NCBI RefSeq assembly: GCF_042134685.1
Contig: NZ_CP169647.1
Location: forward strand, 1,550,585-1,614,584
Reading direction: 5' to 3'
Origin: Microcystis sp. BLCC-F210
GTDB taxonomy: Bacteria; Cyanobacteriota; Cyanobacteriia; Cyanobacteriales; Microcystaceae
Length of the DNA stretch: 64,000 bases
The notes under the pieces: model-generated
What the model was told of the DNA's origin: nothing
What the model saw: only the letters and a program-made list of their open reading frames with translations
Database searches by the model: none
Shown: in pieces, positions 11,108-60,684 of the stretch
Layout: each line of letters opens with the position of its first letter
Position numbering within the stretch: the stretch's first letter is position 1
Program-made: the position numbers and the translations under genes

Positions 11108-11394
11108 GGTAAAATGAAGAGAAACGAGCAATCCATACAGAAAAATGTCTTATAGCCTAGACTTGAGAAAAAAAGTGATCGATTATGTAGAGAATGGGGG
11201 AAGCATAACCAAAGCCGCCGCTCTATTTAATATAGGAAGAGCGACGATATATAGATGGCTAGGTAGGGAAAAACTGGAAGCAACAAAGGTAAAACACCGT
11301 CAGAGAAAGCTGGACTGGAAAGCACTGTCAAAAGATGTCCAAGAAAATCCCGAGGCAAGATTAAGAGACAGAGCCGAGAAGTTTGGGAGCATCT

Positions 11395-11566
11395 CACTTA
11401 CGCGATGAGTAATTATACTTAGCCTAAAAGCCACTCTTAATCGTGTCTTGGAACGAAATAGAGGCTTTTAAAGACCGCGTACATGGAGAATTAAAACAAG
11501 AATTACCCTCGAAAAGCCTATTTTTCTACTAAGTATTTATGCTTATTGCAAAGGTGAGATGCTCCC
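11395..11566. mobile_element. MITE (family G: TIR GGGAGCATCTCAC, 8-bp TSD) inside the IS630 transposase gene
   Basis: 13-bp perfect TIRs GGGAGCATCTCAC/GTGAGATGCTCCC. Flanking direct repeat AGAAGTTT (11387-11394 and 11567-11574). A near-identical copy is at 42274..42455. Confidence 0.7.
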
Positions 11567-20055: not shown

Positions 20056-20241
20056 GGCTCTTCGGGACTTGGTATGGTTCGATATGGGAGCATAAATCGA
20101 CTAAATCCTTATCTGGCAAGAGACTTAATTGATTAGTTCGCTCTAGATCAAAAATAATTGACAAAAATCACTAAATGCCTTTCTATATAAGGGTTCCATC
20201 CCTTATAACCCCTGTCCATTGCATAACAGAAACCCAAGAAC
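20056..20241. mobile_element. MITE family W (TIR GG(C/T)TCTTCG, 8-bp TSD), copy inside IS copy 3
   Basis: Flanked by the direct repeat CCAATTGT (20048-55 and 20242-49). Removing it restores the sequence seen in IS copy 1. Other copies at 42809..42995 and 52197..52383. Confidence 0.6.
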
Positions 20242-20385
20242 CCCAATTGTTTTTTTTATTGTTCGCCTCTTCTAGAAAATAGTTGCTTCGTACTATATTT
20301 TCCTTGCCAAAATCGGGGTTAATGCTCTATTTATTTCAAAATGAGAATTGCTGAGAAAAAAGCCGAATACTGACTTCTAACCCCA

Positions 20386-28974: not shown

Positions 28975-29096
28975 CAGCAATTCTCATTTTGAAACGATTT
29001 TGCGTTGTTTCAGCGATCTAGAGATTCGTTAAGAATTATTAACCCCTCTAGGTGCAAGGGTTTTAATGTCATGAAACCTTAAAATGAGAACTGCTG
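28975..29096 (+). mobile_element. MITE family C (~122 bp; TIR CAGCAATTCTCATTTT(G/A)A), copy A
   Basis: Its termini are identical to the TIRs of the CA-ended IS. Other copies: 37166..37287, 37387..37508, 42662..42783 (inverted), 60110..60231 (inverted). Confidence 0.7.
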
Positions 29097-33055: not shown

Positions 33056-33850
33056 TCAGGTTTCAGGATCTATCCCTAATTCCCGCAATCGTGCCGCTAG
33101 TTGTTCTGCTCGTTGTTTAGCCGCAGAAGCCTCTTGTTTAGCCGCAGAAGCCTCTTGTTTAGCCGCAATTAACTCCTCATCGGCAAGAGGAATCAACTCT
33201 CCCTCCAGCGTCAACCAGCGCAACCATAGCCGCTCAATCCCCCGATAGGAACCTTGCCACAAACCCAAGCTCAATTCCAGTTGAGGAATCGGTAAGCGTC
33301 CCTCCACTAAGGTCACGGGTTGGTAATGACCGCCTACCAGTTCAAACGCTTGAAGTTGGTTAGTATAGCGGCTAAAAACTACATAGTAGGGAACCTGCAA
33401 AATCTGTTCATAAACTGTCCACTTAGTTGGCGGTTCTTCTGGTTGGCGTAGTTCTTCTCCTAAATCTTGATTTTCCGTACCTGGAGACAATAATTCCACC
33501 ACAATCCCAGGGGAAACCCCTTCCTGCCAAATCACATAACTTAAGCGCAGGTCATGGCCATCGTAGAGACGAGGAACACCAACCACCCCAAACCAATCAG
33601 GACGCTTGTACCATTGAGGGTGTCTGACATCGTAGTAAAGGTTAAGGTCAGCGGCGCTAAAAACTAGCTCTGGTTCCCAGTTGGGAGGCTGAAAAGTCAG
33701 CAGTAATAACTGAGGTTGTAATAGGTGAAATTCGTCAGGCAAACCGGGTTCAAGTGGATTATCACTAGGTAAATCGTACATCGTCGGCAGGGATTGCCGG
33801 GGGGAAAGGGAAGGGTCAGATTGGGGAATGGTGAAGGTAGGTGTAGTCAT
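33056..33850 (-). CDS. Uma2-family (DUF820, PD-(D/E)XK) endonuclease, intact paralog
   Basis: The LPTMYDLPSDNPLEPGLPDEFH...QPQLL..TF N-terminus is typical of the cyanobacterial Uma2 family. 264 aa. Confidence 0.7.
   Translation of the reverse strand: MTTPTFTIPQSDPSLSPRQSLPTMYDLPSDNPLEPGLPDEFHLLQPQLLLLTFQPPNWEPELVFSAADLNLYYDVRHPQWYKRPDWFGVVGVPRLYDGHDLRLSYVIWQEGVSPGIVVELLSPGTENQDLGEELRQPEEPPTKWTVYEQILQVPYYVVFSRYTNQLQAFELVGGHYQPVTLVEGRLPIPQLELSLGLWQGSYRGIERLWLRWLTLEGELIPLADEELIAAKQEASAAKQEASAAKQRAEQLAARLRELGIDPET
33121..33162. repeat. 21-bp coding VNTR (2 units) in the Uma2 gene (AAKQEAS repeat)
   Basis: ccgcagaagcctcttgtttag x2. The paralog at 35071..35133 has 3 units. Confidence 0.8.
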
Positions 33851-34107
33851 TTCAGTTATCAGTTATCAGTTATCAGTTACCACTCAGACCTCTCAAACAT
33901 TGTAACTGTGATTACTGTAGCGGCGTCAGCCCCTGGGGAAAAGAATGTAAATATTTATTAAATTGTAGCTTTTGATACAACGCGGGGGGGGAAAGTGTGT
34001 ACCCTCTTGAATGTTAGGTTCGCTGGTCATTGTTTTGGGTTGCCCTATTGCTTAACCCAAATCTAAATGTCCTAAGCACTCAAATCATCTACCATTAACC
34101 CTTTGTT

Positions 34108-34878
34108 ATGAAATTACAACTCGGCATTGTCTCCGCCGGGGTTGCCCTGGCAACTCTGGGAACCAGTGCGGCACAAGCTGCTTTCGTGGTCGTCCCTACT
34201 GACTTGGCTCCTGGCGATCAGTATCGTTTGGTGTTTGTGACTGCTGGCACGCGGGATGCCCAGTCCCTCAACATCGACGACTACAATACCTTTGTCACCA
34301 ATCAAGCCACAGGAGGAACCCCAGGGATTGATACGGCTCTCGATACGGCTTTAAATGGGGCAGGATTTGACCTTAGTACGATTACTTGGAAGGCGATCGG
34401 TTCTACGAGCGCAGTCGATGCTCGTGATAATACAGGTACTAATCCATCGAGCACGGGTGTTCCCATCTACCTGATAGATGGCAACCGGGTCGCCAACAAT
34501 AATGCCGATCTCTGGGATGGGTCTCTCCAACACCCCATAAATCGAAATAACCTGGATGAAATCTCCTCTCATAACAGAATCTGGACAGGATCTAACGAAA
34601 CGGGCCAGCGGACGAATTTATCTGGTTATGCTGCGTATCTGGGGTCGGATAGTACGCTGGGCGTTCGGACGGGGGACCGCTCCCTTACCGATTCGGGTTG
34701 GATCGCCAGGAGCTCCTCGCTCTTTTTTAGCTCGTGGGGTTTATATGCGATGTCGAGTGTGTTGACCGTGCCCGTCCAGCCTGAGCCTGTAACTGTCCCC
34801 GAACCCTCGAGCCTTCTTGGTTATATCACACTGGGCGGTTTAATGCTAGGGGGTGCTGTCCGCAAAGCAAGGAAATAA
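34108..34878 (+). CDS. Secreted PEP-CTERM sorting-domain protein
   Basis: Signal peptide (AGVALATLGTSAAQA), then a C-terminal PEP motif, hydrophobic helix and basic tail: VPEPSSLLGYITLGGLMLGGAVRKARK. Confidence 0.75.
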   Translation: MKLQLGIVSAGVALATLGTSAAQAAFVVVPTDLAPGDQYRLVFVTAGTRDAQSLNIDDYNTFVTNQATGGTPGIDTALDTALNGAGFDLSTITWKAIGSTSAVDARDNTGTNPSSTGVPIYLIDGNRVANNNADLWDGSLQHPINRNNLDEISSHNRIWTGSNETGQRTNLSGYAAYLGSDSTLGVRTGDRSLTDSGWIARSSSLFFSSWGLYAMSSVLTVPVQPEPVTVPEPSSLLGYITLGGLMLGGAVRKARK

Positions 34879-34887
34879 TGCCTACAA

Positions 34888-34923
34888 GGGAGAGGAGACG
34901 CGGGTTTCCTCTCTCTTTTTTTG
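34888..34923 (+). terminator. Rho-independent terminator of the PEP-CTERM gene
   Basis: GGGAGAGGAGA-CGCGGGTTT-CCTCTCTC followed by TTTTTTTGGGGGG. Confidence 0.5.
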
Positions 34924-34988
34924 GGGGGTTTTTAATTCCTGGTTCCAAGGCTCTGCCTTGGAACCAAACATTTAGGCTCTGCCTAAAT

Positions 34989-35881
34989 TTAAAAGTCAAT
35001 CTGAGGAATAGTTTCAGGATCTATCCCTAATTCCCGCAATCGTGCCGCTAGTTGTTCTGCTCGTTGTTTCGCCGCAGAAGCCTCTTGTTTCGCCGCAGAA
35101 GCCTCTTGTTTCGCCGCAGAAGCCTCTTGTTTCGCCGCAATTAACTCCTCATCGGCCAGGGGAATCAACTCTCCCTCCAGCGTCAACCAGCGCAACCATA
35201 GCCGCTCAATCCCCCGATAGGAACCTTGCCACAAACCCAAGCTCAATTCCAGTGGAGGAATCGGTAAGCGTCCCTGCACTAAAGCTACGGGTTGGTAATA
35301 ACCACCTACCAGTTCAAACGCTTGAAGTTGGTTAGTATAGCGACTGAAAACCACATAGTAGGGAATCCGCAGAATCTGTTCATAAACTGTCCACTTAGTT
35401 GGCGGTTCCCCGGGTTGGCGTAGTTCTTGTCCTAAATCTTGATTTTCCGTACCTGGAGACAATAATTCCACCACAATCGTCGGGGAAACCCCTTCCTGCC
35501 AGATCACATAGCTTAAGCGCAGGTCATGGCCATCGTAGAGACGAGGAACACCAACGACCCCAAACCAATCGGGACGCTTGTACCATTGTGGGCGTCTGAC
35601 ATTGTAGTAAAGGTTAAGGTCAGCGCCGCTAAAAACTAGGTCTGGTTCCCAGTTGGGGGCTGGAAAGTCAGCAGTAATAACTGAGGTTGTAATAGGTGAA
35701 ATTCGTCAGGCAAACCGGGTTCCAGTGGATTGTCGCTAGGTAAATCGTACATCGTCGGCAAGGATTGCCGGGGGGAAAGGGGAGGGTCAGATTGGGGAAT
35801 GGTGAAGCTAGGTGTCGTCATAATTTTATTTGAGAAAACGGGTTTCTGAAATAAACCCGTCTTTTGGGGAGCATCCTGCAC
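34989..35881 (-). pseudogene. Uma2-family endonuclease paralog, frameshifted (fragments 35636..35881 and 34989..35507)
   Basis: The N-part and C-part are in different frames. It carries 3 units of the 21-bp VNTR (35071..35133). Confidence 0.6.
35071..35133. repeat. 21-bp coding VNTR (3 units) in the Uma2 pseudogene
   Basis: gccgcagaagcctcttgtttc x3. Confidence 0.8.
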
Positions 35882-35882
35882 G

Positions 35883-36293
35883 CTAGGGTAATTTCTGAAA
35901 CCCGGCTTGCAGGAAATGATTATCTAAGCTGAGAGCCGTGAAAATGCGGCGGTTTTCCATCACGATAAATGAGAGACAATCAGTCAGAGAGTAAGATTTA
36001 TCTTGATATTTTTGAAAATATTGCCAACCTCGGTCGAACAAATCTCGGTCAATTTCTATTAATTCGATGTCGGGACTTTCCCGCAGCCGCTTCCCAATTT
36101 CAACCGCTTTACCGTGAAGATTTCTACTGTTAAAAAAGGTGACAGTTTCATCAAAGACATAAGTGGTAGTCACCAAAAAGGGTTTAGACAGGGCGAGAGT
36201 AAGCCAGTTTTGTAGGACTTGCTCATGAGCATCTTCATTTGCTATTTCTAGGGCAATGATATAGCTGGTATCGAGGAAATAGCTCTTGTTCAT
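35883..36293 (-). CDS. vapC: PIN-domain toxin (VapC-like)
   Basis: FLDTSYIIAL ... DETV...D...D..S pattern of PIN acidic residues. 136 aa. Confidence 0.65.
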   Translation of the reverse strand: MNKSYFLDTSYIIALEIANEDAHEQVLQNWLTLALSKPFLVTTTYVFDETVTFFNSRNLHGKAVEIGKRLRESPDIELIEIDRDLFDRGWQYFQKYQDKSYSLTDCLSFIVMENRRIFTALSLDNHFLQAGFQKLP

Positions 36294-36499
36294 TGTCCGT
36301 AGAGGTAGCGGTCGTGGTGAATTGCCCCGTCTTTGACCTCACATTCGACCGGATTCTTGCCTAAATCCCAGATTGAGGTCTGGCGGGGGGCGGGGGTAAT
36401 AATAATTTGACCTTCTTGTTGAATTAATTCGACTTCTTGGCTTTCGCCCAATAATTCTTTAGGAATTAGCAATCCTTCCTCTGTGACTTTCAATTTCAT
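36290..36499 (-). CDS. vapB: AbrB/SpoVT-like antitoxin (VapB-like)
   Basis: 69 aa. MKLKVTEEGLLIPKELL swapped-hairpin type N-terminus. 4-bp overlap with the PIN gene. Confidence 0.55.
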   Translation of the reverse strand: MKLKVTEEGLLIPKELLGESQEVELIQQEGQIIITPAPRQTSIWDLGKNPVECEVKDGAIHHDRYLYGQ

Positions 36500-36500
36500 C

Positions 36501-36971
36501 CTATTCTCCTTTTCGGGTTTGATAATAGCTTGATTTTGACATATTAGTTGGCGGTTCCCCGGGTTGGCGTAGTTCTTGTCCTACATCTTGATTTTCCGTA
36601 CCTGGAGACAATAATTCCACCACAATCGTCGGGGAAACCCCTTCCTGCCAGATCACATAGCTTAAGCGCAGGTCATGGCCATCGTAGAGACGAGGAACAC
36701 CAACCACCCCAAACCAATCGGGACGCTTGTACCATTGCGGGTGTCTGACATTGTAGTAAAGGTTAAGGTCAGCGCCGCTAAAAACTAGGTCTGGTTCCCA
36801 GTTGGGGGGCTGGAAAGTCAGCAGTAATAACTGAGGTTGTAATAGGTGAAATTCGTCAGGCAAACCGGGTTCCAGTGGATTGTCGCTAGGTAAATCGTAC
36901 ATCGTCGGCAAGGATTGCCGGGGGGAAAGGGGAAGGTCAGATTGGGGAATGGTGAAGCTAGGTGTCGTCAT
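36501..36971 (-). pseudogene. Uma2-family endonuclease paralog truncated after ~140 codons at the vapBC cassette junction
   Basis: Identical to the other paralogs up to ...LRQPGEPPT, then it diverges (NMSKSSYYQTRKGE*) exactly where the vapB upstream sequence begins. Confidence 0.55.
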
Positions 36972-37165
36972 TTCAGTTATCAGTTATCAGTTATCACTCA
37001 GACCTCTCAAACATTGTAGTTTTGTAGCGACTGTCTTGATTGTCAAGGGGTAACTCAAAAAACAATCAAGGAGTTGCTGTCGAACCTAAAATCTCAAGCC
37101 AGAAAAAAGCGCAGCAAAAACTAAGTCGCTCAGGTTAAACCAAAGCAAGCGCAACCCTTGATCAG

Positions 37166-37287
37166 CAGCAATTCTCATTTTGAAACGATTTTGCGTTGTT
37201 TCAGCGATCTAGAGATTCGTTAAGAATTATTAACCCCTCTGGGTGCAAGGGTTTTAATGTCATGAAACCTTAAAATGAGAATTGCTG
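37166..37287 (+). mobile_element. MITE family C, copy B
   Basis: See 28975..29096. It is in tandem with copy C, separated by a palindrome AAAACGGGTTTCTGAAAGAAACCCGTTTT. Confidence 0.7.
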
Positions 37288-37386
37288 TTGATTCATAAAT
37301 CAACCCTACCCGAAATCGTAGAGCAGGGGGGGTGGGAAAGGGGAGTATTTAGAAAACGGGTTTCTGAAAGAAACCCGTTTTCTAGG

Positions 37387-37508
37387 CAGCAATTCTCATT
37401 TTGAAACGATTTTGCGTTGTTTCAGCGATCTAGAGATTCGTTAAGAATTATTAACCCCTCTGGGTGCAAGGGTTTTAATGTCATGAAACCTTAAAATGAG
37501 AATTGCTG
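37387..37508 (+). mobile_element. MITE family C, copy C
   Basis: See 28975..29096. Confidence 0.7.
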
Positions 37509-37568: not shown

Positions 37569-39083
37569 ATGCCAGATCAGCCAATCTCGATCGCCCAATA
37601 CTACCACGAGCGGACCAAATACGACCCCCAGACGATCGCCTCAAAAAGTAAAGGTCTTGATTGGAGTCAACAACCCTATCCCTTCAAAGAATACAAAATC
37701 GGTCAGACTTTCGATCTCAAACCCTACCTCTCCCGTCAAGCAGTTCCCCAAAAAGGAGACTTTTGGCGACGTATATCGCGAATTTTGGGCTGTAGCTATG
37801 GTTTAACTGCCAAAATCGCCACTATGGGTAGTCCCTTGTACCTGCGTTCCGCACCCTCTGCTGGTGGATTATACCCCGCCGAGGTTTATCTGATCTCCCG
37901 TGGTACGGAATTTTTACCCGCCGGTCTCTACAGTTATCAAGGTCAAAGTCACTCGCTGCTTTTATTCTGGGAAAGTGATGTCTGGACGAACCTACAATCT
38001 GCTTGTTTCTGGAATCCTGTTTTAGAAAATACCGATATCGCTTTAGTTACCAGTGCCATTTTTTATCGATCCGCTTGGCGCTACGAAGATCGAGCTTATC
38101 GGCGTATTTTCCTAGATACAGGGCATTTATTGGGCAATATTGAGCTATCAGCCTCGATTAATGACTATCGCGCTCATTTAATCGGTGGTTTTAACGATAG
38201 TCAGATGAATGAATTGCTTTATCTCGATTCCGAGAAAGAAAGTGTCATGACGGTGATTCCTTTGGCAGATCTGCTCAATATCCAGCAAAATCTCCCCCCT
38301 AGTACCACGGCACTCCCTTCGGCAACCACGACTCTTTATCCCAAAATTGCCGAGGGAGAATTATTAAACTCTCTACACCGAGCGACTATCATAGCCACAG
38401 ATGAGAAGATAGAAGCAAATATTACCCCCTCTAATTGGGAAGATAAATATAATTTTCCTTTTTGTCTAAAAGTTTCCGTGACATCCCGTCCCGTCAATTG
38501 GGGGGAAGATTTAATCGATCTGGAAAGTACGATGCTTAAACGCAGATCTACCCGCGCTTATAGTGGTGCTAGTCTCAGTTTAGACGAATTGCGAGCGCTG
38601 CTGCATTTTACCTATCAACCCCAAGATTATACCGACCAAAATCTCGATCCCAATCCCGATTATTTTGATCTAGACTTATTGGAAACTTTTATCGCTGTTT
38701 CGGCAGTAACCGGATTAGAGGAAGGCTGTTATTATTATGCTCCTAAAGCTCAAGAATTGCGGCAAATTCGCTTTAAAAATTTCCGGCAAGAGTTACATTA
38801 TCTCTGTTTAGGTCAGGATTTGGGACGGGATGCGGCTGCTGTGGTTTTTCATACGGCGGATCTGTCAAAAGCAGTGGCTAAATACGGCGATCGAGTTTAT
38901 CGTTATCTTCATGCAGATGCGGGTCATTTGGGACAGAGATTAAATTTAGCGGCTATTCATCTGGGGTTAGGGGTTAGTGGTATCGGTGGTTTTTTTGATG
39001 ATCAAGTTAATGAAGTGTTAGGAATTCCCTCCGATGAAGCAGTTATCTATATCACTACTTTAGGCCGACCGAAGGTTTTTTAG
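37569..39083 (+). CDS. SagB-type dehydrogenase / tandem nitroreductase-fold protein
   Basis: 504 aa. N-terminal YYHERTKYDP and LRSAPSAGGLYPAEVYL (SagB-type signature). The second half has KRRSTRAYSG (nitroreductase RRSxR motif). Confidence 0.6.
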   Translation: MPDQPISIAQYYHERTKYDPQTIASKSKGLDWSQQPYPFKEYKIGQTFDLKPYLSRQAVPQKGDFWRRISRILGCSYGLTAKIATMGSPLYLRSAPSAGGLYPAEVYLISRGTEFLPAGLYSYQGQSHSLLLFWESDVWTNLQSACFWNPVLENTDIALVTSAIFYRSAWRYEDRAYRRIFLDTGHLLGNIELSASINDYRAHLIGGFNDSQMNELLYLDSEKESVMTVIPLADLLNIQQNLPPSTTALPSATTTLYPKIAEGELLNSLHRATIIATDEKIEANITPSNWEDKYNFPFCLKVSVTSRPVNWGEDLIDLESTMLKRRSTRAYSGASLSLDELRALLHFTYQPQDYTDQNLDPNPDYFDLDLLETFIAVSAVTGLEEGCYYYAPKAQELRQIRFKNFRQELHYLCLGQDLGRDAAAVVFHTADLSKAVAKYGDRVYRYLHADAGHLGQRLNLAAIHLGLGVSGIGGFFDDQVNEVLGIPSDEAVIYITTLGRPKVF

Positions 39084-39177
39084 GGTGAGTTTGAACCACT
39101 GAAGGGATGACAAGGAGGCTGAGGTCGTAGTAATCTGTACCTTGACGGATGCACTTTCTCGCTGGGACGTATTTTGT

Positions 39178-40095
39178 TTAAAGGTTAATCCAACTACGCA
39201 CCATTTGTCGAGGTTTTCCTGAATTTTTAAAAGCGGTTCTATTGTGGCATAAAAAGCGATTATTAACGTAAAATATATCACCTTTTTTCATTTTGAAGCG
39301 GACTGTATTTTCTGGTTCTGAAAAAAAGTTGTCGATGATGTCAAGTGTTTTTGTGATAGCTTCTGGTTGCGCTATTTCTAGTTTGGAGTAAGCAACTTCA
39401 ATCCAGTACCGCATATAACGAAAAACCAGACCCCGAGAATCTGTTGAGAATAAGGGGAAATTATTATTTTGAATAGCTTCTTGAGAATTAATCTCTCCCG
39501 GGGTAATCACATCCCGCGCCAAAGGTTCGTAGAGACAGGGAACTAGGTCTGTATGGTTTTGCCAGAAATATTGATACAAATTGGCGGCGTTTACTACCAG
39601 GGAATCTCCTCCCTCATCCGCGGCAGCAAGACAGAGTAAGCCAACAATATCAGGGAAGTAGTTTTTGTCTGTACTATCGGTATGATAGCCAGTTTCTGCA
39701 TTCGTCATCGAAACGGGTATAGCTTCTTTAGTGTAATCCATTCCTCGATCGATTACATCAAAAAAATAGCCATAGCGGTGGTTTAACAGTCCAAAAATGC
39801 AAGAAATAAAAGCATAAATTAACCGCATTTCTGTTTCTGTTAATGCTGAATCTAATCGAAAAAAAATTATTCCTGGTTCCTGGAGCAATTTCTCACGAAA
39901 CGGTAGAAACAAATCAAGATTTTTATTTACTATTTCCCGTCCTATTTCGTTGGGTTTTTCAAGCCATCTCTGATTGCTTGTTTTTAGTAAATCCAAGACT
40001 AATGATTTGGGTAAACTAAAAAATAGTTGAGAAGGATCGGGCAATTTTTTCCAAGTCAGTAATGAAATATTAGAATCGGAAATTGGTATAATCAT
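39178..40095 (-). CDS. Fe(II)/2-oxoglutarate-dependent dioxygenase, TauD/TfdA-like
   Basis: 305 aa. HxD (GYHTDSTD) and a distal His (RFLCHNRTAF) about 145 residues apart, as in TauD. Confidence 0.55.
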   Translation of the reverse strand: MIIPISDSNISLLTWKKLPDPSQLFFSLPKSLVLDLLKTSNQRWLEKPNEIGREIVNKNLDLFLPFREKLLQEPGIIFFRLDSALTETEMRLIYAFISCIFGLLNHRYGYFFDVIDRGMDYTKEAIPVSMTNAETGYHTDSTDKNYFPDIVGLLCLAAADEGGDSLVVNAANLYQYFWQNHTDLVPCLYEPLARDVITPGEINSQEAIQNNNFPLFSTDSRGLVFRYMRYWIEVAYSKLEIAQPEAITKTLDIIDNFFSEPENTVRFKMKKGDIFYVNNRFLCHNRTAFKNSGKPRQMVRSWINL

Positions 40096-40853
40096 TTTTG
40101 AATTTTGAAGGCAACGTGAAGGGGAAGGTCAATAAGCGGAGTAAAAAATTCTGGGTCTAGTTCTAAATGTTTCTGATTAATTTTTAGTTCATAAACTTCT
40201 GGCATTTTTGTGAATGTTGCTAAACGAAGAGATGTGAAGTAATCTTCCATAGTTTTATGAACACATTGCACGGCGACGGCTTTTCTATCTCTACGCCAAA
40301 TCTCACCAGGGAATAATTGATCGCGTCCAGAAAAATAGCCAGCTTCCGGTTTAAAATAAAAGGGAAACTTATCTTTTTTCAGAAAAGGTAAAGAGGGATG
40401 GGGGACAGCGAACAGGAAATACCCACCCAACTTTAAAAGTTGGTAGGCTTTCTGCATCGTGCTAATAGTTTCTGAAACATTTAAGTAGTTGAACAGGAAC
40501 ATAGCCAGAACTAAATCGTATTGTTCGGACTCAGTGACCAGAAAATCACGAATATCACCAGTTTCATAAGAAGCATTAGTAATCTGATACTCGTTTTTTT
40601 GAATTAAGGCCTGCTCGATCATTTGCGATGAAATGTCAATCCCATGAACATATTGAGCGCCTCGGTTAATTAACTCTCTTCCTACATAACCTTCCCCACA
40701 GCCTATATCTAATATATTCTTGTTGACAATCGGTTCACATAAATCAATGACAAACGGACGCGCAGAGTAATCAGAAAGCAAAATCGGTTCTACTCGTTTC
40801 CAGTCTGCTGCGCTTTCGTCGTAAAGTTTTTTGGTTTCTTGTGTTGCTTTCAT
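40092..40853 (-). CDS. Class I SAM-dependent methyltransferase
   Basis: Motif I ILDIGCGEGYVG; acidic loop HGIDIS. It overlaps the downstream gene by 4 bp (ATGA). Confidence 0.7.
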   Translation of the reverse strand: MKATQETKKLYDESAADWKRVEPILLSDYSARPFVIDLCEPIVNKNILDIGCGEGYVGRELINRGAQYVHGIDISSQMIEQALIQKNEYQITNASYETGDIRDFLVTESEQYDLVLAMFLFNYLNVSETISTMQKAYQLLKLGGYFLFAVPHPSLPFLKKDKFPFYFKPEAGYFSGRDQLFPGEIWRRDRKAVAVQCVHKTMEDYFTSLRLATFTKMPEVYELKINQKHLELDPEFFTPLIDLPLHVAFKIQK

Positions 40854-40879
40854 ACCTATCTAACGGGATAAAATTTGCA

Positions 40880-42581
40880 CTAATTTTGTTTTAGTCTAGC
40901 ACTGTGTAAGTAATTACCCATAAAACTTTTGCCAGTTAATCCGAAATCAGCTATCGCCAAGAAAATTAGCTCTTCTTCTCCTAAGTTCACACATTGATGC
41001 ACACACCAACGGGGAATAACAGCAAAAGTACCCGGTTCGACTTCGTTTTCGTATTGATCAACAATAACCTTTCCTTGACCCTGAAGAAATACAAATACGG
41101 TTTCATGTGCGTGTTTGTGCATTTCATTCGCCTTTCCTGGCTTGACTATAACTAGGCGTGCATCTAAAACTTCTAGAGCAAATGGCAGCCGAAATACGTT
41201 AAAATCAATATTAAGTTTATCAACCTTGTTGTTGTACAAAGCTTCTAAGTTGCTGGCGCTGATTGTTGAAATAAGCTCTTTACCTTCTCGGACATAAGTT
41301 AAGCTTTTTTGTTGATTAATTTTTTCGGTCAATGCTCCTAGTCGCAGCGTTTGAAAATCATGGTAAAGTTGTGATGCAAGCCTTAATATTGTTGGAGAGC
41401 ATTGGCATTCACCAGATGGATCCACAAGCCAATCTAACAAGTTTATAACTTCTTCCCTGTGCTTTTCCCTTTGCATCCCGTATAGCAAAAGTGAACTCAA
41501 TCCGGGTAGTAGTTTTTCCACTGGAACAGTAGATAAGTCTGCCGTCAATCCAATCCGCGCATCATTGATTTGATGCAATAAAAGTTCCCGTTCCTGATTA
41601 GACAGCTTTTTGCTTTTAATTATTTTAGTAAAAAGCGTAACAATCCTGAGTTGGTCTGATGATGTCAAAGATTTATCTAGTGCCAACGCACGTTCATACA
41701 TATTGTCCCAGTAAGCAGCACGTAGATTTAAGGCTTTTAACATTCCTTTCCGTAATTCCAGAACAGCCTGTTCGCTTTCACTGGCTAATTCCTTAGCAAT
41801 CTCAACTAAAGTTAAGCTGTGTTCATCCTCCACTTCTGTGTGTAAAGGAAAAAATACATATTGCTGCAAGGATAATGATGTATGGTTTTTAATCGCTTTA
41901 ATAATGTGTTTGTAGATAAATTTAACAATAGATTCAGTCCCTAAACCTATCGCTCCAATAGCTTCGAGTGAACTTCCATTCTGGAGCAGTGACAAGAATG
42001 ATTCACGCCAGATTTTTGCTTCAACACAAGGCGTTTGCGTGCTATCTACTCCCATAGCTTCTTGAAAACGCTTGAATAACTTTGGGTGAGGGATTTCCTG
42101 TACCCACTCATCCTTAATACCTAATTTACGGATTGCTTCCAGATCTTGATCGTATAGATGTCCGTTTTCTTCAGCTAAGTTCTTGAGCAGATGATTTCGA
42201 TGAGCGGGATTTTCTAGCTTTGATATTACTGCTGTTAAATAGCGGGAAAACCACTCACTATAAGCTCCGTATTGGGAGCATCTCACTTACGCGATGAGTA
42301 ATTATACTTAGCCTAAAAGCCACTCTTAATCGTGTCTTGGAACGAAATAGAGGCTTTTAAAGACCGCGTATATGGAGAATTAAAACAAGAATTACCCTCG
42401 AAAAGCCTATTTTTCTACTAAGTATTTATGCTTATTGCAAAGGTGAGATGCTCCCTCCGTATTGACTGGCAAAATCTTTCAAAACTTCATCAATATGTTG
42501 AAATTCTCCTTTTTCTAAAGCCAGTAAATACGGGTGATTAATTGCTCGATGGTTTAGTGCTTCCTTGATTAAATTTTCCAT
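40880..42581 (-). pseudogene. Heme-oxygenase-like di-iron (HDO; CADD/PqqC-like) domain fused to a C-terminal 3-His cupin; the gene is split by a MITE after codon ~42
   Basis: Joined N-terminus: MENLIKEALNHRAINHPYLLALEKGEFQHIDEVLKDFASQYG | AYSEWFSRYLTAVISKL...LLKNLAEENGH...LHTEVEDEHSL (HDO helix-bundle carboxylate/His ligands). Cupin motifs MHKHAHETVFVFLQGQG and PGTFAVIPRWCVHQCVN. The MITE lies at 42274..42455. Confidence 0.6.
42274..42455. mobile_element. MITE family G (TIR GGGAGCATCTCAC), copy inside the HDO-cupin gene
   Basis: 13-bp TIRs. 8-bp TSD TCCGTATT (42266-73 and 42456-63). About 95% identical to 11395..11566. Confidence 0.7.
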
Positions 42582-42661
42582 TTTTTCTCATTCCCCGATA
42601 GCCCCTCCTTTTTAGGTAATATCACAAAACTGGCCAATTGTCGATAGCGTTTCAGATGCGC

Positions 42662-42783
42662 CAGCAATTCTCATTTTAAGGTTTCATGACATTAAAACCC
42701 TTGCACCTAGAGGGGTTAATAATTCTTAACGAATCTCTAGATCGCTGAAACAACGCAAAATCGTTTCAAAATGAGAATTGCTG
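42662..42783 (-). mobile_element. MITE family C, copy D (inverted), ~80 bp upstream of the HDO-cupin start
   Basis: See 28975..29096. Confidence 0.7.
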
Positions 42784-42808
42784 CAGATGCGCTTACCCTC
42801 GGTTAAAT

Positions 42809-42995
42809 GGTTCTTCGGTTTGTATTATGCAATGGACGGGGGGTATAAGGGATGGATCCCTTATATAGAAAGGCATTTGGCGATTTTTGTCAATTGCTTT
42901 TGATCTAGAGCTAACTAATCATTTAAGTCTTTTGCTAGATAAGGATTTAGTCGATTTATGCCCCCCTATCGAACCATACCAAGTAACGAACAACC
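42809..42995 (-). mobile_element. MITE family W, copy C (inverted)
   Basis: 8-bp TSD GGTTAAAT (42801-08 and 42996-43003). It contains track ORF 42887..43102, which is therefore rejected. Confidence 0.6.
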
Positions 42996-43102
42996 GGTTA
43001 AATATAGCCAAGCTGACAGTTTTCCGTCAGGTTATCTTAGAAGGACTAAGGATGAACCACACAGGCACAAAGAACACAGAGAGGAAGATAGATCATTCTT
43101 GA

Positions 43103-43501
43103 TTAAGATTCTCTGAGACTTTCCCTCTCTAATTCGATTAAATTATCGATTTTCTTTAGCTTGGTATCCCCAGCAAGATAACCGATCCCGCGATGTAAAT
43201 GTAAGCGAAATTGTTGAGTTAGAGTTTCTTTATCGGTTCCTAATCCGTCTTGATGACAACGTTGTTTAAGGGCAATTAAGAAAATATCGGCCATTTCTCC
43301 CCCGAATATTTTCCAGGATAATTCTACATTGCTATCGGCAGGAATGGGAACGGGAGAGGGGAGACTCGGTTCAGCAAGGGAACGACAAAAAGCCCAACGA
43401 CAGAGAATATTCCATTGGTCAATTTTCGTGTAGCGTTTTAATTTTATGAGGCTATCTTTGGCAGTTTGAGATAGTCGAAAACGTTCGATCGGTGATTCCA
43501 T
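43103..43501 (-). CDS. DndE-like (DUF1832) small protein, orphan
   Basis: RFRLSQTAKDSLIKLKRYTKIDQWNILCRWAFCRSL ... CHQDGL ... LHLHRGIGYL resembles DndE-family proteins as I recall them. No dndBCD genes in the window. Confidence 0.4.
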   Translation of the reverse strand: MESPIERFRLSQTAKDSLIKLKRYTKIDQWNILCRWAFCRSLAEPSLPSPVPIPADSNVELSWKIFGGEMADIFLIALKQRCHQDGLGTDKETLTQQFRLHLHRGIGYLAGDTKLKKIDNLIELERESLRES

Positions 43502-52196: not shown

Positions 52197-52383
52197 GGCT
52201 CTTCGTTACTTGTTATGGTTCGATAGGGTGGCATAAATCGACTAAATCCTTATCTGGCAAGGGATTTAATTGATTAGTTCGCTCTAGATCAAAAATAATT
52301 GACAAAAATCGCTAAATGCCTTTCTATATAAGGGTTCCATCCCTTATAATCTCCGTGCATTGCATAACACAAAACGAAGAACC
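52197..52383 (+). mobile_element. MITE family W, copy B
   Basis: 8-bp TSD GTGATTAT (52189-96 and 52384-91). Confidence 0.6.
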
Positions 52384-60109: not shown

Positions 60110-60231
60110 CAGCAATTCTCATCTTAAGGTTTCATGACATTAAAACCCTTGCACCTAGAGGGGTTAATAATTCTTAACGAATCTCTAGATCGCTGAAACA
60201 ACGCAAAATCCTTTCAAAATGAGAATTGCTG
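60110..60231 (-). mobile_element. MITE family C, copy E (inverted)
   Basis: See 28975..29096. It is preceded by (cagtgat)x3. Confidence 0.7.
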
Positions 60232-60684
60232 CCCCAACTAGGCCTACAAGAGCGGCATCGCACTTTAACCCCACATTCCGCACCCTAGTCGTTGAAATCA
60301 AAAGTTGCTCTAGCCCTTGTATAGTAAGACTTTTAGCGATTACTAAGAATTATGAAGTGTCACACTCTAGTCAGCGATCGCCAGCTTAATGAGAGTTTAT
60401 CTCAATAATTTGGTATCAGAGCTATCAGATTTTTAGGGCTAATTGTGCATCTGCTAGACAAACAAATTAGCCTGTAATTCAGAGCCAGCAATCGTTTTGA
60501 CGATTTGGATAAAATTTTCAATGTGACACTTTAGGGTGCGGAATGTGGGTTAAACCCACAGCTTCAGTCCATGGGCATGGTGCGTTCCCCAAAATCGATC
60601 GCTGGAGCGGTAGGACTTGCATTAGGGAACGCACCCTACAAGATCGGCGATTGCGCTGAATACGGTCGGTGTGCAACAGTATTG

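Follow-up and report, generated by a model that had tools for sequence, protein, structure and literature searches.

A MITE-interrupted HDO-cupin gene with methyltransferase and TauD-family partners in an accessory island of Microcystis sp. BLCC-F210

The DNA analyzed here is a window of 64,000 nucleotides from Microcystis sp. BLCC-F210 (NZ_CP169647.1, positions 1,550,585–1,614,584), and all coordinates are those of the window. Three genes are packed on its minus strand between 39178 and 42581: a lead gene encoding a heme-oxygenase-like dimetal oxidase (HDO) domain, a helical domain, and a cupin, a gene for a methyltransferase (MT), and a TauD-family gene. On balance, we favor a joint model in which they form a dispensable cassette, acquired horizontally, that tailors a small metabolite containing nitrogen in an O2-dependent manner, with a free amino acid or amine as the likeliest candidate, and in which the core of the cassette is a dimetal HDO of the HrmI/CADD/BesC type. 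Our best guess is that a methylated amine or amino acid is tailored oxidatively, and any specific product would be at most an unlikely guess. The pathway is dead in the present strain, its HDO being split after residue 42 by a miniature inverted-repeat transposable element (MITE) that transposed recently.

Full-text literature searches found no description of the HDO-helical-cupin/MT/TauD family, in line with an earlier sequence-only reading of this DNA that had proposed an undescribed system. The family is an uncharacterized subfamily of the known HDO superfamily with a distinctive partner set, and it is not yet evidence for a new chemistry class. Reactions are known for only about a dozen HDOs, and almost all of these revealed new chemistry (PMC13108848). 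The partner set is portable, consisting of an inseparable MT and Fe/2-oxoglutarate (2OG) enzyme pair, a 3-His cupin, a GNAT acetyltransferase, and a PaaE-like reductase, which makes the family a tractable target for deorphanization. Its hosts are abundant lake and ocean bacteria and the bloom-former Microcystis.

HDO and cupin domains in the lead protein

The sequence-only reading had described three tightly packed genes with a 4-bp overlap between the MT and TauD genes, and the layout of the open reading frames (ORFs) bears this out (overlap at 40092–40095). The main ORF of the lead gene runs to 40880, and the MT start follows 26 bp further on. Pfam identifies Haem_oxygenas_2 (residues 36–224) and Cupin_2 (residues 413–480) in the lead protein, and class I methyltransferase, TauD, and Nitroreductase domains in the other proteins. 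NCBIfam gave only sub-threshold matches for the lead protein, to the CADD subfamily (62 bits, with a cut-off of 200) and to BesC. A promoter and terminator scan returned no more sites than shuffled sequence did.

An HDO domain had been proposed at the N terminus, and both sequence conservation and fold agree with it. The 62 HDO-domain relatives that were aligned all have E74, E75, H102, E153, H184, and H191, and at least 90% of them have Asp or Glu at position 188. The predicted dimetal ligands, E75, H102, E153, H184, E188, and H191, make up a 3-His/3-carboxylate set on core helices α1–α3 that aligns one-to-one in the family profile with E81/H88/E142/H174/D178/H181 of CtCADD. An ExxH motif (E75..H78) had been taken for a ligand pair, but H78 is variable across the family, and the His ligand of helix α1 is H102, which lies beyond a 26-residue insertion. 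The HDO domain modeled alone with AlphaFold (AF2) has a predicted local distance difference test (pLDDT) score of 96.3 and adopts a seven-helix heme-oxygenase-like fold. Foldseek placed CtCADD and BesC on top (E~1e-7, TM score 0.70–0.83), followed by UndA, a Nostoc CADD-like protein, PqqC, and TenA, with HrmI at rank 24. In the full-length AF2 model the HDO part was poor (pLDDT ~60), with the HDO-only sequences misaligned in its alignment, and a Foldseek search with this model returned nothing beyond generic small cupins.

Judged by its residues, the N-terminal domain is predicted to be a true HDO with a complete ligand set. TenA and PqqC were rejected as identities because all six predicted ligands are kept, the gene lies in a strain-variable island, and both score lower than the HDOs. 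By sequence, the HDO profile is nearest to CtCADD (57 bits, 1e-14) and NePabS (47 bits, 1e-11), with which it shares all six metal ligands. It differs from them in lacking the sacrificial residues and in its setting, which is not folate biosynthesis. In CtCADD, Tyr27 is the sacrificial residue and Lys152 the amine donor; in the profile alignment these positions are occupied by L19 and I163, and a CADD-type self-sacrificing synthase of para-aminobenzoic acid (pABA) was rejected for this reason.

The other point of comparison is a group of enzymes that includes the HDO lysine N6-oxygenases HrmI and BelK and the HDO 4-Cl-lysine C–C lyase BesC. The substrates of HrmI and BesC are free lysine or 4-Cl-lysine (PMC13108848). 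Identity to these proteins is only 17–21%, and they lack the 26-residue insertion between the α1 Glu and His ligands. The partners found here, an MT, a TauD-type enzyme, a cupin, a GNAT, and a PaaE-like reductase, are also unlike theirs, and there is no nonribosomal peptide synthetase (NRPS) context.

The full-length AF2 model contains an all-helical domain of ~115 residues between the HDO and the cupin. The cupin had been read as an HxHxxxE metal site, but the motif is H425-x-H427-x-H429-E430 with T431 in the position of the canonical Glu, which makes it a 3-His site (H425, H427, and H465). Residues H425, H427, H429, E430, H465, and Q466 are invariant in 38–44 relatives. The best solved-structure matches of the cupin profile are gentisate 1,2-dioxygenases; gentisate, 5-nitrosalicylate, and 5-aminosalicylate dioxygenases are nearest, at a modest match strength (43 bits).

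These matches, together with the proximity of the HDO family to CtCADD and NePabS, would suit an aromatic metabolite. A CADD-like HDO would make or hydroxylate a pABA-like aromatic amine or acid, a UbiG-like MT would O-methylate it, and the gentisate-dioxygenase-like cupin would open the ring. The MT does match UbiG, and the reductase found in relatives is PaaE/BenC-like. We nevertheless consider such a pathway very improbable: the L19/I163 replacements exclude self-sacrificing pABA synthesis, the cupin matches are modest, and TauD enzymes of the γ-butyrobetaine dioxygenase (BBOX)/FrbJ kind act on aliphatic carbons.

In nearly all relatives the helical and cupin part is a separate protein of ~253 aa, the gene of which overlaps the HDO gene by 4 bp, and the HDO-helical-cupin single polypeptide was found only among Microcystis-type sequences. 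The HDO-cupin fusion appears from this distribution to be a secondary, Microcystis-specific joining of two genes. More distant lineages carry an HDO together with a cupin of 171–186 aa from the same family (45–47% identity), in which the KHAHE motif is conserved. Two distant HDO-cupin fusions (P0200 and P0201) have as neighbors only two methyltransferases or a fatty-acid desaturase.

The sequence-only reading had likened the lead protein to SznF. What stands of this is an HDO joined to a metal-binding (3-His) cupin; the domain order and the homology do not stand, and the fusion is secondary. SznF is unlike other characterized HDOs in having a cupin domain (PMC13108848), and its layout is an N-terminal dimerization domain, the HDO, and the cupin (PMC11705231). 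GrbD and ChmM share this architecture, and the fragin cluster pairs the heme-oxygenase-like HamA with the cupin HamB (PMC11705231, PMC12522199). Like SznF, GrbD, and ChmM, the lead protein is a single polypeptide in which a 3-His cupin of the mono-iron type follows a dimetal HDO, and a methyltransferase is encoded next to it. In contrast to SznF, its HDO is N-terminal, a helical domain precedes the cupin, and there is no dimerization domain. SznF was absent from the search with the whole lead protein at E≤1, from the search with a distant HDO-cupin fusion, and from the HDO-profile search at E≤10; it was neither among the 60 best of 81 cupin-profile matches nor in the Foldseek top 50 with the HDO model. 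Membership in the SznF clade was rejected on the grounds that there is no recognizable homology over HDO and cupin and that the domain layout is different. The resemblance to SznF is one of architecture only, and HDOs are paired with cupins outside the SznF lineage as well.

The functional analogy can be weighed separately. In a pathway of the SznF type, the MT, like SznE, would produce a guanidine or amine bearing an N-methyl group, the HDO would N-hydroxylate it, and the cupin would rearrange the product to an N-nitroso compound or diazeniumdiolate. SznF is the sole characterized HDO with a cupin (PMC13108848), with GrbD, ChmM, and HamA plus HamB as precedents, and the 3-His cupin site is like H407/H409/H448 of SznF (PMC11705231). 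There is also a weak match to PF11251 (HamA_HO-like), and the MT is a conserved partner. We consider this pathway rather unlikely, since the cupin is nearest to ring-cleaving dioxygenases of the gentisate type, simple spacing places no Tyr at the position of SznF Tyr459, the fusion is secondary, and ten loci with HDO, MT, and TauD have no cupin. NRPS, polyketide synthase, and sugar- or peptide-attachment genes are not nearby, and the N–N/N–O chemistry would rest on analogy, without specific similarity. A seventh ligand, a Glu on a β-turn in the auxiliary helix α2, has been proposed as the mark of HDO N-oxygenases (PMC7848743).

HamA is a mononuclear 2-His-1-Glu, 2OG-dependent enzyme (PMC12522199), whereas the HDO described here keeps a dinuclear ligand set; equivalents of HamC and HamD, the N-oxygenase and NRPS of the fragin/valdiazen cluster, are not present at the locus. 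We consider it unlikely that the HDO and 3-His cupin are an independently evolved counterpart of SznF or of HamA/HamB, constituting a second N–N/N–O-forming (nitrosating/NO-releasing) lineage. If they were, this lineage would be spread in freshwater Bacteroidota, Planctomycetota, and Microcystis, and its product would be a small reactive nitrogen metabolite with a methylated, hydroxylated amino acid as precursor.

Conserved partners and the proposed pathway

Relatives were collected by a one-genome-per-species scan, which found 273, and the loci of the best 80 of these were compared. Among them, the nearest non-Microcystis relatives come from metagenome-assembled genomes (MAGs) of freshwater Bacteroidota (60–74% identity), followed by Betaproteobacteria (Undibacterium and Curvibacter); relatives in Planctomycetota, Lentisphaerota, and Phycisphaerae have about 51–55% identity. 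The cassette was probably acquired horizontally, with freshwater Bacteroidota as the source. A HMMER scan of 1.84 billion representative proteins returned 112 clusters (50% identity) at E≤1e-30 and 344 at E≤1e-10, which include further HDO-cupin fusions of 370–440 aa and multidomain proteins of 800–1250 aa.

Loci were searched with the window proteins, and partners were counted at the 28 non-Microcystis loci that have 3.5 kb or more on both sides. HDO, MT, and TauD occur without a cupin at 10 of the 28 and HDO and cupin without MT and TauD at 12; all four are together at five loci, and one locus has no partner. The assignment of an MT and a TauD-like gene in the sequence-only reading agrees with the Pfam domains, and both are conserved partners of the HDO. 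Their genes were never found apart at these loci. Their placement relative to the HDO gene varies, being downstream, convergent, or divergent, which points to functional linkage rather than inherited synteny. The set of HDO, MT, and TauD recurs in Bacteroidota, Planctomycetota, Lentisphaerota, and one proteobacterium-like contig, and the HDO and MT are fused in P0004 and L066. Two further partners are found in freshwater Bacteroidota: a GNAT acetyltransferase (21 loci, two arrangements) and a PaaE-like FAD/NAD/[2Fe-2S] reductase (7 loci, three positions; 282 bits to TIGR02160). The latter belongs to a kind of enzyme that returns diiron oxygenases to the reduced state. One Bacteroidota locus (L021) has a six-gene version in the order GNAT-HDO-cupin-MT-TauD-reductase.

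The MT scores 54–68 bits with Pfam Methyltransf_25/31/12/11 and has the Rossmann-type SAM-binding domain with a GxGxG motif, here DIGCGEG. Among solved structures it is nearest to ToxA and the phosphoethanolamine N-methyltransferases (PEAMT), but it resembles generic O-methyltransferases equally, and UbiG is among its NCBIfam matches. In the TauD enzyme (Pfam TauD, 86 bits), H138, D140, H284, and R296 are invariant in 21 aligned sequences. The family profile gives a full-length match to FrbJ (98.6 bits, 3.8e-27), followed by matches to Protein Data Bank entry 7n7v, BBOX, TmpA, and DfmD, and the top NCBIfam match is TmpA. No mention of 7n7v, the second-best match, was found in searchable papers. 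When the BBOX cage was aligned, Y177 corresponded to the invariant Y108 and W181 to F/Y112, whereas Y194 is replaced by K/M/Q and N191 by P127. The enzyme resembles the FrbJ/BBOX/TmpA subgroup in its intact HxD...H...R site and in the aromatic counterparts of BBOX Y177 and W181, and differs from it in that Y194 and N191 are not kept and identity is 25–30% at best.

The phosphonate enzymes among these matches raise the alternative that the cassette modifies or mineralizes an aminoalkylphosphonate of the 2-aminoethylphosphonate type. N-Methylation or N-acetylation would be followed by TmpA/FrbJ-like C-hydroxylation and then by oxidative C–P cleavage, with the diiron HDO replacing the HD-domain oxygenases PhnZ/TmpB. 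FrbJ, TmpA, and DfmD are the best solved matches of the TauD enzyme, TmpA is the best in NCBIfam, and the MT resembles phosphoethanolamine N-methyltransferases. The GNAT partner is reminiscent of PhnO/FrbF, and cupins are frequent in phosphonate chemistry. The hosts are freshwater and marine, where phosphorus is limiting, and one distant HDO and cupin locus lies near PhoX and a PstS-like gene. On the other hand, the loci inspected contain no pepM, phn, or phosphonate-transporter genes, the similarities are at the subfamily level only, and spending S-adenosylmethionine (SAM) for phosphate release would be uneconomical. We know of no HDO that cleaves C–P bonds. Taken together, these points make phosphonate chemistry quite improbable.

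Tailoring of a small nitrogen-containing metabolite, the reading that we prefer, draws its probable substrate class from three similarities: HrmI and BesC bind free lysine or chlorolysine, the TauD enzyme is FrbJ/BBOX-like, and the MT is ToxA/PEAMT-like. In such a pathway, the MT would N-methylate the substrate and the BBOX/FrbJ-like Fe/2OG enzyme would hydroxylate a neighboring carbon. The HDO, re-reduced by a ferredoxin-type reductase, would then carry out an N-oxygenation or a C–C/C–X cleavage. As an optional last step, the 3-His cupin would rearrange or cleave the product of the HDO in another O2-dependent reaction.

Several points weigh against this pathway. The order of the steps is a guess, and no characterized homologue exceeds about 20% identity. 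Similarity of the MT to ToxA, PEAMT, UbiG, and BioC would fit N-, O-, or C-methylation alike. Half of the relatives are without MT and TauD and a third are without the cupin, so there may be several substrates or products. The Microcystis island contains no dedicated reductase or GNAT. Y194 of the BBOX cage is not conserved, and FrbJ, the best match of the TauD enzyme, does not act on a quaternary amine.

Other contexts of the HDO were seen among the relatives. The domain lies inside multidomain proteins of 800–1250 aa (P0364, P0366, P0367, P0395, and P0413), and in marine Planctomycetota and Verrucomicrobiota (within P0008–P0098) it stands behind an N-terminal cyclic-nucleotide (cNMP)-binding domain, which suggests allosteric control by cyclic nucleotides. 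In a Curvibacter MAG (L045, 6858–10296), a LuxR-type regulator with autoinducer-binding and GerE domains is immediately upstream of the HDO and cupin genes and an AraC-type regulator is downstream, which hints that the pair is tied to signaling in some hosts. In Flavobacteriales MAGs (L070–L079; L070 4939–8008), the HDO and cupin genes divergently adjoin genes for a glutathione peroxidase and for proteins of 106 and 206 aa, the former thioredoxin/YtxJ-like by eye only. A link to oxidative or thiol stress is possible for these loci.

MITE insertion, island borders, and decay in Microcystis

The sequence-only reading had suspected that a MITE inactivates the lead gene, and this proved correct. 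The element splits the gene into a 49-aa ORF (42432..42581) and a 468-aa ORF (40880..42286). Its termini are perfect 13-bp inverted repeats (GGGAGCATCTCAC), and the 8-bp target-site duplication is found at 42266–42273 and 42456–42463. A second copy at 11385..11566 is 99.5% identical and has its own 8-bp duplication, which points to an active family. The hallmarks of a MITE are present: terminal inverted repeats, target-site duplications at both copies, and near-identical copies without an ORF. Removal of the MITE and one duplication in silico restores a single frame of 503 aa, not the 567 aa given previously, a value that equals (42581 − 40880 + 1)/3.

MITE-free orthologues, which the sequence-only reading had proposed to look for, are present in two metagenome contigs (L087 and L088), where an uninterrupted 503-aa protein is 100% identical to the MITE-excised reconstruction. 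This identity indicates that the reconstruction is valid and that the insertion is recent. It also makes the broken copy a natural knock-out for strain metabolomics. M. aeruginosa NIES-4325 has an intact allele as well. The MITE is missing from nine other Microcystis-type loci, namely eight from Microcystis and one from a MAG labeled Dolichospermum (L007).

Two further repeat elements lie in the promoter region between the DndE-like and lead genes (Table 1). Element A has four other copies in the window (37161–37287, 37386–37508, 28975–29096, and 60110–60232), and element B has two (20061–20242 and 52202–52383). Both elements are absent from five other Microcystis loci, as shown by flanking intergenic stretches that are only ~10 bp apart. 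The window contains three families of short, non-coding MITE-like repeats with 2, 5, and 3 copies; three of the insertions lie within the lead gene or immediately upstream of it, and two lie immediately upstream of SagB.

Table 1. Features of the cassette and its surroundings (window coordinates; strand "." where none applies)
Feature	Position	Strand	Remarks
SagB/ThcOx-family double-nitroreductase gene	37569..39083	+	core-genome flank outside cassette; convergent with cassette
Accessory island with three-gene cassette	39106..43097	.	insertion/deletion relative to M. aeruginosa NIES-2549
TauD-family Fe(II)/2OG oxygenase	39178..40095	-	305 aa; Pfam TauD, H138/D140/H284/R296 alignment
Class I SAM-dependent methyltransferase	40092..40853	-	253 aa; Pfam Methyltransf_25/31/12/11, DIGCGEG motif
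Lead gene, pseudogene in this strain	40880..42581	-	coding pieces 42581..42456 and 42265..40880
Lead protein parts			HDO aa 1–240; all-helical middle domain aa ~245–360; 3-His cupin aa ~380–485
Cupin domain	40883..41206	-	Pfam Cupin_2 and alignment of relatives
HDO domain	41672..42581	-	MITE-interrupted
MITE, 182 bp	42274..42455	.	in lead gene, codon 42/43; 13-bp terminal inverted repeats, 8-bp target-site duplications
Repeat element A, ~125 bp	42662–42788	.	promoter region between DndE and lead gene
Repeat element B, 182 bp	42809–42990	.	promoter region between DndE and lead gene
DndE-like gene	43103..43501	-	core-genome flank outside cassette; Pfam and comparison with cassette-less genome

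The borders of the island were defined by comparison with a genome that lacks it. In the complete genome of NIES-2549 the gene order is Band_7-SagB-DndE-DndD-like; SagB and DndE are separated by 43 bp, and the cassette is missing. When this junction (L093) was aligned to the window, the breakpoints fell at 39105/39106 and 43097/43098. The GC content of the island is 38.5%, versus 41.8% for the window.

The product of the convergent gene contains a SagB domain (210 bits, NCBIfam), and the sequence-only reading had counted it as a member of the pathway. SagB is 97–99% identical across many Microcystis genomes, including ones without the cassette, and SagB and DndE were seen only at Microcystis loci. 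Its retention in NIES-2549, where the cassette is absent, identifies it as a core flanking gene rather than a pathway member. We therefore find it hardly credible that SagB and the three genes form an azoline-oxidizing pathway or one for a ribosomally synthesized and post-translationally modified peptide, and equally so that the HDO serves housekeeping cofactor salvage of the TenA/PqqC type. The convergent, adjacent position of SagB in all cassette-bearing Microcystis and weak TENA_THI-4 Pfam matches would fit these readings. However, SagB abuts DndE in NIES-2549 and is missing at all non-Microcystis loci, and no YcaO-like or precursor ORF was found near the cassette among the window ORFs. A widespread housekeeping role is incompatible with the six conserved ligands, the presence/absence polymorphism of the island among strains, and its repeated knock-outs.

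Such knock-outs were observed in several strains. The lead gene is also interrupted by the MITE in L089, an IS66-family transposase splits the HDO-cupin gene in M. aeruginosa KW (L096/L097, 10509–13883), and the TauD gene is split into ORFs of 216 and 79 aa in L088/L091 (1765–2682). The cassette has been inactivated independently in several Microcystis strains. For ten copies of the cassette, nine of them uninterrupted and the tenth with the MITE-excised gene of this strain, the ratio of nonsynonymous to synonymous substitution rates was 0.21 for the HDO, 0.35 for the helical domain, 0.13 for the cupin, 0.13 for the MT, and 0.25 for the TauD gene; the flanking SagB and DndE genes gave 0.12 and 0.05 for comparison. 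Where it is intact, the cassette is under purifying selection. The picture is one of an accessory cassette that is of use under some conditions but can be spared under others. The locus exemplifies the flexible genome of Microcystis, in which a foreign cassette is gained and then lost piecemeal to MITEs and insertion sequence elements.

The DndE, Uma2, and toxin-antitoxin neighbors had suggested anti-phage defense, a role that was rejected because PADLOC recognizes no system; it reports nothing for the HDO-cupin protein or the TauD enzyme and a generic methyltransferase-domain match for the MT.

The contig from the MAG labeled Dolichospermum sp. (L007, 3346–6571) carries the cassette with 84–96% amino acid identity to Microcystis, in a different flank with Uma2 upstream and no SagB or DndE. 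It is either a mis-binned Microcystis contig or the result of recent transfer between bloom-forming cyanobacteria.

In the present strain DndE is orphaned, as the DndD-like 661-aa AAA_23 gene located behind DndE in other Microcystis genomes (L001 and L093) is unmatched anywhere in the 64-kb window. The stretch between Band_7 and SagB (33059–36971) contains an intact (33059–33850), a broken (35010–35821), and a truncated (36537–36971) copy of a Uma2-family endonuclease gene. Interleaved with these are a secreted PEP-CTERM-like gene (34108–34878) and a PIN-toxin/antitoxin pair (35883–36293 and 36290–36499). Other strains have a single Uma2 gene here, and the stretch therefore looks like a rearrangement hot spot.

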